From Eledone cirrhosa (taxonomy: Eukaryota): a stretch of DNA of 64,000 bases. The stretch spans positions 11,098,001 through 11,162,000 of the forward strand of contig OZ024763.1 in assembly GCA_964016885.1 (NCBI GenBank). Reading direction: 5' to 3'. The stretch's first letter is position 1; the number at the start of each line of letters is the position of its first letter. Of the stretch, positions 10,041 to 10,752 are shown piece by piece. A program made the translations under genes and the position numbers. Below the pieces are notes generated by a model. That model did not search any database. It saw nothing but the letters and a program-made list of their open reading frames with translations, and was not told the origin of the DNA.

Positions 10041-10095
<55 letters not shown>

Positions 10096-10171
10096 AAAAG
10101 AAATAGAAAATGCAACTGGAGTCTTTTTAAGAATATTTATTTGTTTCCTTAAAAATGTGTCAAAGATTTTC

Positions 10172-10220
10172 GCCCCCGCGCAAGGATGACACGCAAATTC
10201 GGGAAGCGTTCCATATTTTT
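10172..10220 (+). pseudogene. U6: U6 snRNA 3' fragment (retrocopy) inside a fold-back element
   Basis: gcccccgcgcaaggatgacacgcaaattcgggaagcgttccatattttt matches the conserved metazoan U6 3' half (GCCCCUGCGCAAGGAUGACACGCAAAUUCGUGAAGCGUUCCAUAUUUUU) with 2 substitutions. Confidence 0.92.
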
Positions 10221-10752
10221 AAGGAAACAAATAAATATTCTTAAAAAGACTCCAGTTGCATTTTCTATTTCTTTTCCTTATATATATATATATATATATA
10301 TATATTTAGCCCCGTTTTTTCCTCATGTGCTTTTTCATAAATACACATGAAGGCGAACTAGCCAGTTTTAGAATTCCCTTTTTCGGATTATATTACTGTG
10401 AGAGCCCTGGTTTTCTGTTGAGCTCTGCTGATGATTGAAATTCCAACCGTGACCATCTCCACTGAAAGTTTTCATGAAATAGTCTTTTAAGACTATACAG
10501 AGCATTTGATGTTATTCCAAATTGAAGGATAAGTGTTTCAAACTTTATTTTATCATGAGTTAAAGGTCTATAGATTTTCCCTGGATTTTACTAAATTCTG
10601 TGGATGAATTTATATCCTGATTCTCTTTTGAGATGAGTTTGAGTTATTTTTCCTAAATCTTTCGTTAACTACTTTTCCCATCTTGACGTTATAGTCGCAT
10701 ATATGTTATAGAATGCCGTTAGCTTCTTGCTAAAACAATCTCTATACCTCTC

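Follow-up and report, generated by a model that had tools for sequence, protein, structure and literature searches.

Chimeras between U6 snRNA and retroelements, on the one hand, and minimal hammerhead ribozymes in Penelope-like elements (PLEs), on the other, are each already known, while their coupling was not found in print. For the U6/LINE-1 (L1) system, the parts of PMC6789731 drawn on here describe a mature human U6 that ends in five U and a cyclic phosphate (U6>p), in vitro ligation of that end by RtcB to ribozyme-made RNA with a 5'-OH, and a human U6/L1 fusion RNA that arises without retrotransposition and requires both the cyclic phosphate and the 5'-OH, with junctions that carry T4-T8 and have no preferred L1 site. 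For the ribozymes, a core variant with U3-A8 is known from the Cercyon PLEs of Schistosoma (Cervera and de la Pena 2014, PMC4209133), whose relevant sections state that in vivo cleavage of animal PLE minimal hammerheads is open, and both in vivo cutting and the ligase are likewise treated as open in the portion of PMC6765202 used. In the literature searched, which took in few subscription papers, nothing describes a fusion of U6 at ribozyme sites, and such a link is absent from the passages available of PMC11838501, PMC4476161, PMC13247085 and bioRxiv 10.64898/2026.07.22.740005.

The window, that is, the whole stretch of DNA analysed here, comprises 64,000 nt of a 3.0-Gb animal genome (C24:11098001-11162000). 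On its plus strand, at 10172..10220, it carries the 3' 49 nt of a U6 snRNA, identical to a tandem U6 gene copy (L041) at 47 of 49 positions and matching Rfam RF00026 over the same interval (E=6e-8, 40.2 bits), below the gathering score of 44 bits because the piece is a fragment; at gathering thresholds, the whole window gave no Rfam match. The piece ends in T5 at 10220, host genes having T6-T8, and since it is also 5'-truncated and flanked unlike the gene array on C19, it is a dispersed retrocopy and not a gene. The 3' part of a Penelope-like pLTR, belonging to an older subfamily of the lineage called family A, follows at 10221..10279 (+) and aligns at offset 0 with a parent copy (L058), such that base 10221 is the first base past the hammerhead NUH triplet and, as assembled, zero extra bases lie between U6 and element. 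The U6 3' end with its T-run and the retroelement 3' part share one strand, as in U6 chimeric retrocopies. To the left, 10092..10156 (-) holds an inverted copy of the chimera made up of 59 nt of pLTR and the last 6 nt of U6; the arms 10092-10156 and 10215-10279 form a perfect inverted repeat, with the inner mismatch at 10157/10214, and the left arm is a PLE-type inverted arm formed after the fusion. The inversion point lies in a 15-nt linker at 10157..10171, which by sequence and cmscan alignment may include remnants of U6 in either orientation (matches of 6 nt, alone not significant). Tracts of (TA)n, the usual setting for family A copies, occupy 10044..10091 on the left and 10280..10305 on the right, and a target-site duplication is therefore unreadable. 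A long tract rich in GGT/GAT trinucleotides, a simple repeat, adjoins the chimera at 10860-11320.

A separate family A copy of the younger subfamily lies at 8512..8660 on the minus strand (alignment to L109), is 5'-truncated 7 nt before the cut site, which falls between 8654 and 8653, and shows A-CCGG-TA directly 5' of 8653, the equivalent of position 10221. An earlier note on this DNA had placed this homologue at 8590-8662; it was right about A-CCGG-TA 5' of the same start, whereas the true span is about 8512-8660 and the two copies belong to different subfamilies, the homologue's being the younger. Its view that U6 takes the place of what lies 5' of that motif was borne out, 10221 aligning with 8653 and at offset 0 with L058, as was its description of a U6 fragment ending in TTTTT at 10220 with the element directly behind (47/49 identity, the RF00026 match and the start at 10221). 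Its claim that the inversion followed the fusion also stands, given an arm that includes the complement of the last 6 U6 nt and arms that cross the junction at 5 loci. By construction, the hammerhead core boxes are not in the chimera itself and are seen in its parents; as the note had remarked, a full hammerhead of the chimera's family is missing from the window, which holds only two damaged copies from sister family B, one at 1128..1157 (+) with a U3-A8 core and A13 changed, intact in L218, and one at 40394..40423 (-). Rfam hammerhead models run against 8000-11000 left the minimal motifs unmatched. The window also contains C3-G8 minimal hammerheads of other families at 8366, 9447 and 9857 (+) and at 200, 9267, 22233, 23988, 26441 and 58121 (-), as well as family D copies at 22783, 52276, 57316 and 58945 (+) and three on the minus strand, most of them fold-backs whose truncation point lies immediately upstream of helix III, so that the 5' core is usually absent.

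Parents of family A were collected by a DNA search with 10221-10281; of 119 candidates, 40 yielded a total of 43 matches, and 30 loci were read. Upstream of the junction they show TTGAAAA, a 4-bp hairpin and then GAAA-CCGG-TA, with the core boxes (C3/U3 UGAN G8/A8 A, GAAA, UH) present in order, and the U6 junction is the first base past the GUA triplet. Judged from its sequence, the motif is a predicted minimal type I hammerhead in which U3-A8 replaces C3-G8. The family check for a hammerhead 5' of the junction, as the earlier note had framed it, succeeded as to the ribozyme and failed as to the core, the predicted CTGANGA not being in the parents and TTGAAAA (U3-A8) being found instead. At least 12,924 exact matches to the family A hammerhead pattern occur in the genome, with 0 for the reversed control. 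Across 17 copies drawn from families A and B, 82% of cells are paired versus 24-44% in slid structures, and in three pairs both partners have changed; of five covariation measures, a single one is set apart from its shuffles (7/500), the other four lying at 38-105/500. Helix I is short (3-4 bp), no family A fold beats shuffles in folding energy (z-scores -0.85 to +0.88), the minimum-energy fold of the young subfamily does form helices I and II, and helix II usually has its fourth pair disrupted in the subfamily of the window's chimera. The hammerhead stretch was also seen in DNA contigs of organism A, in 2 contigs of organism B and in 1 of organism C.

The assignment of family A to the PLEs comes from a near-full copy (L212) that runs from an inverted copy through a pLTR 3' end, a frameshifted ORF and a 3' UTR to a family A hammerhead 1.4 kb downstream, a layout that follows the PLE pattern of a pLTR hammerhead 3' of the ORF and a 5' end with a partial repeat and an inverted segment. 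Its ORF matches RVT_1 at 29.9 bits (Pfam cut-off 29.6) and GIY-YIG at 29.7 bits (cut-off 22.6), so that family A is, by sequence, a Penelope-like element; the PLE link drawn in the earlier note is upheld by these two matches. In L215, GIY-YIG again exceeds the Pfam cut-off and is again linked to a family A hammerhead.

Genome-wide, a U6 core pattern gave 81 matches, about 33 of which fall in the C19 gene array. This tandem array (C19:31.78-31.84 Mb) comprises about 33 copies in a 1.8-kb unit, with T-runs of T6-T8. A second pattern, which required a U6 tail of exactly five T, gave 65 matches (control 0), all of which were classed: 17 rows (16 loci) fall on a hammerhead cut site, LINE-like 3' regions account for another 17, 18 join SINE-like elements at their starts or close by, one (L018) is off-site inside a hammerhead-bearing element about 170 nt before the core, and 12 are without an assigned partner, the labels LINE-like and SINE-like denoting resemblance only. 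Three further on-site loci (L011, L002, L049) have a slightly decayed U6, and one near miss (L103) has T4 and 3 extra bases. Altogether, 19 of the 21 U6 chimeras traced to hammerhead-bearing elements, the window chimera and 18 other loci, join at offset 0, the cut site, which agrees with the earlier note's expectation that U6 junctions are non-random relative to cleavage sites. They span 11 families: four in A (the window, L019, L021, L083), three in D, two each in B, H and J, and one each in C, E1, E2, F, G and I. The NUH triplets comprise GUA, GUC, GUU, CUU and AUA, and the helix sequences differ, those of families D, E, H and J being unrelated. All 19 on-site U6 tails have five bases (two with one substitution) and nothing added.

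Several of these assignments have a narrower base. A strict hammerhead descriptor scan found the family A junctions and missed families B-J, and the parents were for that reason read by alignment; in B, G and I, downstream indels had displaced the automatic offset, and comparison with the parents by eye confirmed the start. Family F copies examined show the motif's 3' half only, the full core of family D is seen in one copy (L131), and the parent match of L105 spans 12 nt only. L096 and L171, which resemble the E and J families, were left uncounted among the 12 without an assigned partner, and the score-26+ matches of L004, L005, L041, L093, L106+, L167 and L103- were not scored as on-site, being AT-rich chance matches or unclear. 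Two loose-pattern matches (L080, L081) lack an upstream U6 and were discounted as chance matches.

In blind tests, three partners without a known parent were searched without knowledge of what lay upstream, and all three had a hammerhead ending at the junction. Family H has U3-A8, a 7-bp helix I, a 6-bp helix III capped by a long loop, and CUU; family I has C3-G8, a palindromic loop and AUA; and family J has U3-A8, 5-bp helices and GUU. In H and J the parents' last bases are T, so those two junctions are fixed only within 2 nt. The 6-bp helix III of family H (L179, L182, L184; C1:5713637 and others) carries a 50-nt structured loop, and this hammerhead could act as a monomer; in L216, a GIY-YIG-like ORF end without a Pfam match adjoins a family H hammerhead.

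Start points of ordinary copies provide the background against which these junctions are to be read. The cut site is the start of 1 of 34 ordinary family A copies (picked by their 3' part) and of 2 of 14 in family J; among the first 100 family H matches listed, 16 start there by eye and about 6 in the 52 nt upstream. At a 1-in-20 rate, the binomial probability is about 4e-23 for 19/21 and 8e-17 for 19/33, which counts the 12 unassigned as misses. It follows from the 1/34 that most family A insertions come from templates intact at that bond (uncut or re-joined); most family A copies run through the hammerhead uncut, yet all four family A U6 fusions sit on the cut site. Among the first 100 of 172 matches listed from an unselected-T-run search (C1 to C11:44 Mb), judged by eye, T5 occurs with 14 of 15 hammerhead partners and with 12 of 26 SINE-like partners (Fisher p=0.003), a contrast that is confounded because SINE-like parents may supply T of their own. 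T5 is also not special to ribozymes, since T5 U6 joins LINE-like 3' regions at scattered sites as well (17/65).

Other recurrent U6 junctions were observed alongside. A single point of a short SINE-like element of about 60 nt is, to within a few bases, the joining site of more than 20 U6 retrocopies, whose T-runs and linker bases vary (among them L003, L009, L012, L016, L023, L025, L033, L035, L039 and L045, and also L165, L219, L220 and L224). Non-U6 look-alikes number only 3 in about 0.85 Mb of examined DNA, and the junction point may be another fixed RNA end or belong to a U6-headed element. Hot spots in LINE-like 3' regions include L008, L159 and L222 at the same base, L006 and L168 3 nt further on, and L221, L175 and L176; all these junctions have T5 and no added base, and they are possibly nuclease or unrecognised ribozyme sites. 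In addition, L047, L173 and L177 are U6-T5 chimeras with one related partner family in common, and L098, L103 and L106 show back-to-back inverted U6 ends whose arms run on into different sequences.

We consider it likely that the chimera arose through self-cutting of the element RNA, probable RtcB ligation to mature U6 and copying back by Penelope enzymes. Hammerhead 3' products bear a 5'-OH. In the proposed sequence of events, the hammerhead would cut after GUA, probably as a dimer, and leave the 3' piece with a 5'-OH; RtcB would join U6, with its five U and cyclic phosphate, to this end of the element RNA; and the PLE protein would recognise the intact pLTR 3' end, reverse-transcribe across the junction into U6 and then make the usual truncated inverted 5' arm within a (TA)n target. 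At 5 of 19 loci the inverted arm extends past the junction and takes in part of U6, namely 6 nt in the window and 40-93 nt in L019, L091, L100 and L102. This places the fusion before, or during, PLE-type integration, and the differing families and subfamilies imply at least 12 separate fusions. The five-base tails without additions, set against the host's T6-T8, fit mature U6 as described in the cited part of PMC6789731, a cyclic phosphate in this animal being presumed by analogy with human U6. An RtcB gene is present in the genome (5 exon matches above cut-off, C6:3.41 Mb), and RtcB is probably the ligase at the U6 junction, the DNA alone being compatible with a template jump by the reverse transcriptase (RT) too. 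A search for U2, as another small RNA that could stand at cut sites, returned 48 matches, all tandem gene copies; tandem U2 arrays lie at C3:307.35-307.45 Mb and C13:36.17-36.18 Mb. Hammerhead cleavage in vivo, in the germline, is needed by the ligation and template-jump readings alike, and the junctions argue that it very probably takes place. We also find it reasonably probable that U6 acts as a natural tag of 5'-OH RNA ends, and that the genome holds a fossil map of at least 11 Penelope hammerhead families cut in the germline, with host RtcB ligating the products.

An identical junction position is predicted if the hammerhead cuts in vivo and no RNA is ligated, the PLE RT reaching the cleaved 5' end and jumping onto the U6 3' end, so that cDNA would be the earliest form of the chimera. 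Template switching has been the classic explanation of how U6 became joined to L1, L2 and RTE (PMC4476161, in the parts used); it also accords with U6 at apparent SINE-like starts (18/65) and with the many plain family H copies that begin at the cut site, which imply that free ends there serve as templates. We nevertheless regard such a jump as rather unlikely at these junctions. End-to-end RT jumps often add untemplated bases, as R2-type enzymes do, whereas 19 of the 20 junctions at or near the cut site have none, and the U6 tail has the mature five-base form; moreover, human U6/L1 fusion RNA forms without retrotransposition, according to the passages cited from PMC6789731.

Ligation after ribozyme cleavage must also be weighed against explanations that dispense with the ribozyme or with separate events. 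It is highly improbable that the RNA end at this site has some other origin, such as a host nuclease hot spot, a splice-related cut or a transcription start, with the hammerhead a dead relic: the junction follows NUH in 11 families without common flanks, including GUC, GUU and CUU, and helices I and II differ between families in compensating ways, even though the family A triplet overlaps a donor-like word (GT-AAAG), U6 junctions recur at a few spots of a LINE-like 3' region (one base has three, and another two lie 3 nt away) and PLE minimal hammerheads are slow in vitro in the sections of PMC4209133 consulted. A splice-donor cut would fall 3 nt before the junction, and the donor-like word is missing in other families, on which grounds the splice-donor reading was rejected. 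A DNA-level event or a single founder, whether one chimera amplified, elements inserted behind a genomic U6 or an assembly artefact, has next to no probability; founders within a subfamily could be common to the four family A chimeras, but the partners span 11 families and two A subfamilies, which refutes one founder for the set, and U6 truncation points and flanks vary. Moreover, it is with the 3' end, and not the 5' end, that the element abuts its target, so the end at the cut site cannot be a target-primed one.

Under either leading mechanism, ligation or template jumping, the finding that junctions in 11 families fall on precisely the cut base is strong indirect evidence of germline cleavage. 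If true, the ligation reading would supply missing in vivo evidence for slow PLE ribozymes, point to RtcB as the ligase of the PLE cycle, and give the U6/L1 model what it had been missing, a known source of the 5'-OH end, which in turn makes ligation versus template jumping directly testable. Furthermore, the sequence after U6 tails could provide a cheap, genome-only screen for cleavage sites and self-cleaving RNAs in large genomes; here, reading U6 tails uncovered three unsuspected hammerheads (families H, I and J).

Placed beside the described systems, the PLE hammerheads of this genome are close to the pLTR minimal hammerheads of PMC4209133, as far as the relevant sections go, in being type I with a palindromic loop 3, a short helix I and the U3-A8 core, and in their pLTR location, often as close opposite-strand pairs; family A differs from them in having a 4-bp helix II and no extra base between positions 9 and 10.1. 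That work reports low in vitro activity, states its own lack of in vivo evidence and, in those sections, proposes self-circularisation and not fusion to host RNA. In platypus, opossum and lizard, U6 is joined to L2, RTE and SINEs (Doucet et al. 2015, PMC4476161); these chimeras are alike in having non-L1 partners, and LINE-like and SINE-like U6 chimeras of that kind also occur in this genome; the published ones are explained by template switching, in a text that, to the extent available, mentions neither Penelope nor ribozyme (0 matches each). There is also a likeness to the U6/LINE-1 chimeric pseudogenes ascribed to RtcB ligation (Moldovan et al. 2019, PMC6789731), which share the short-T-run U6 3' end on a 5'-truncated retrotransposed element and the proposed chemistry of cyclic phosphate and 5'-OH. 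Their junctions scatter over L1 without a specific sequence and, in the parts cited, with no endoribonuclease named, whereas here U6 is joined to a PLE, always at the predicted cut site of the element's own ribozyme in 19 of the 21 traced cases.
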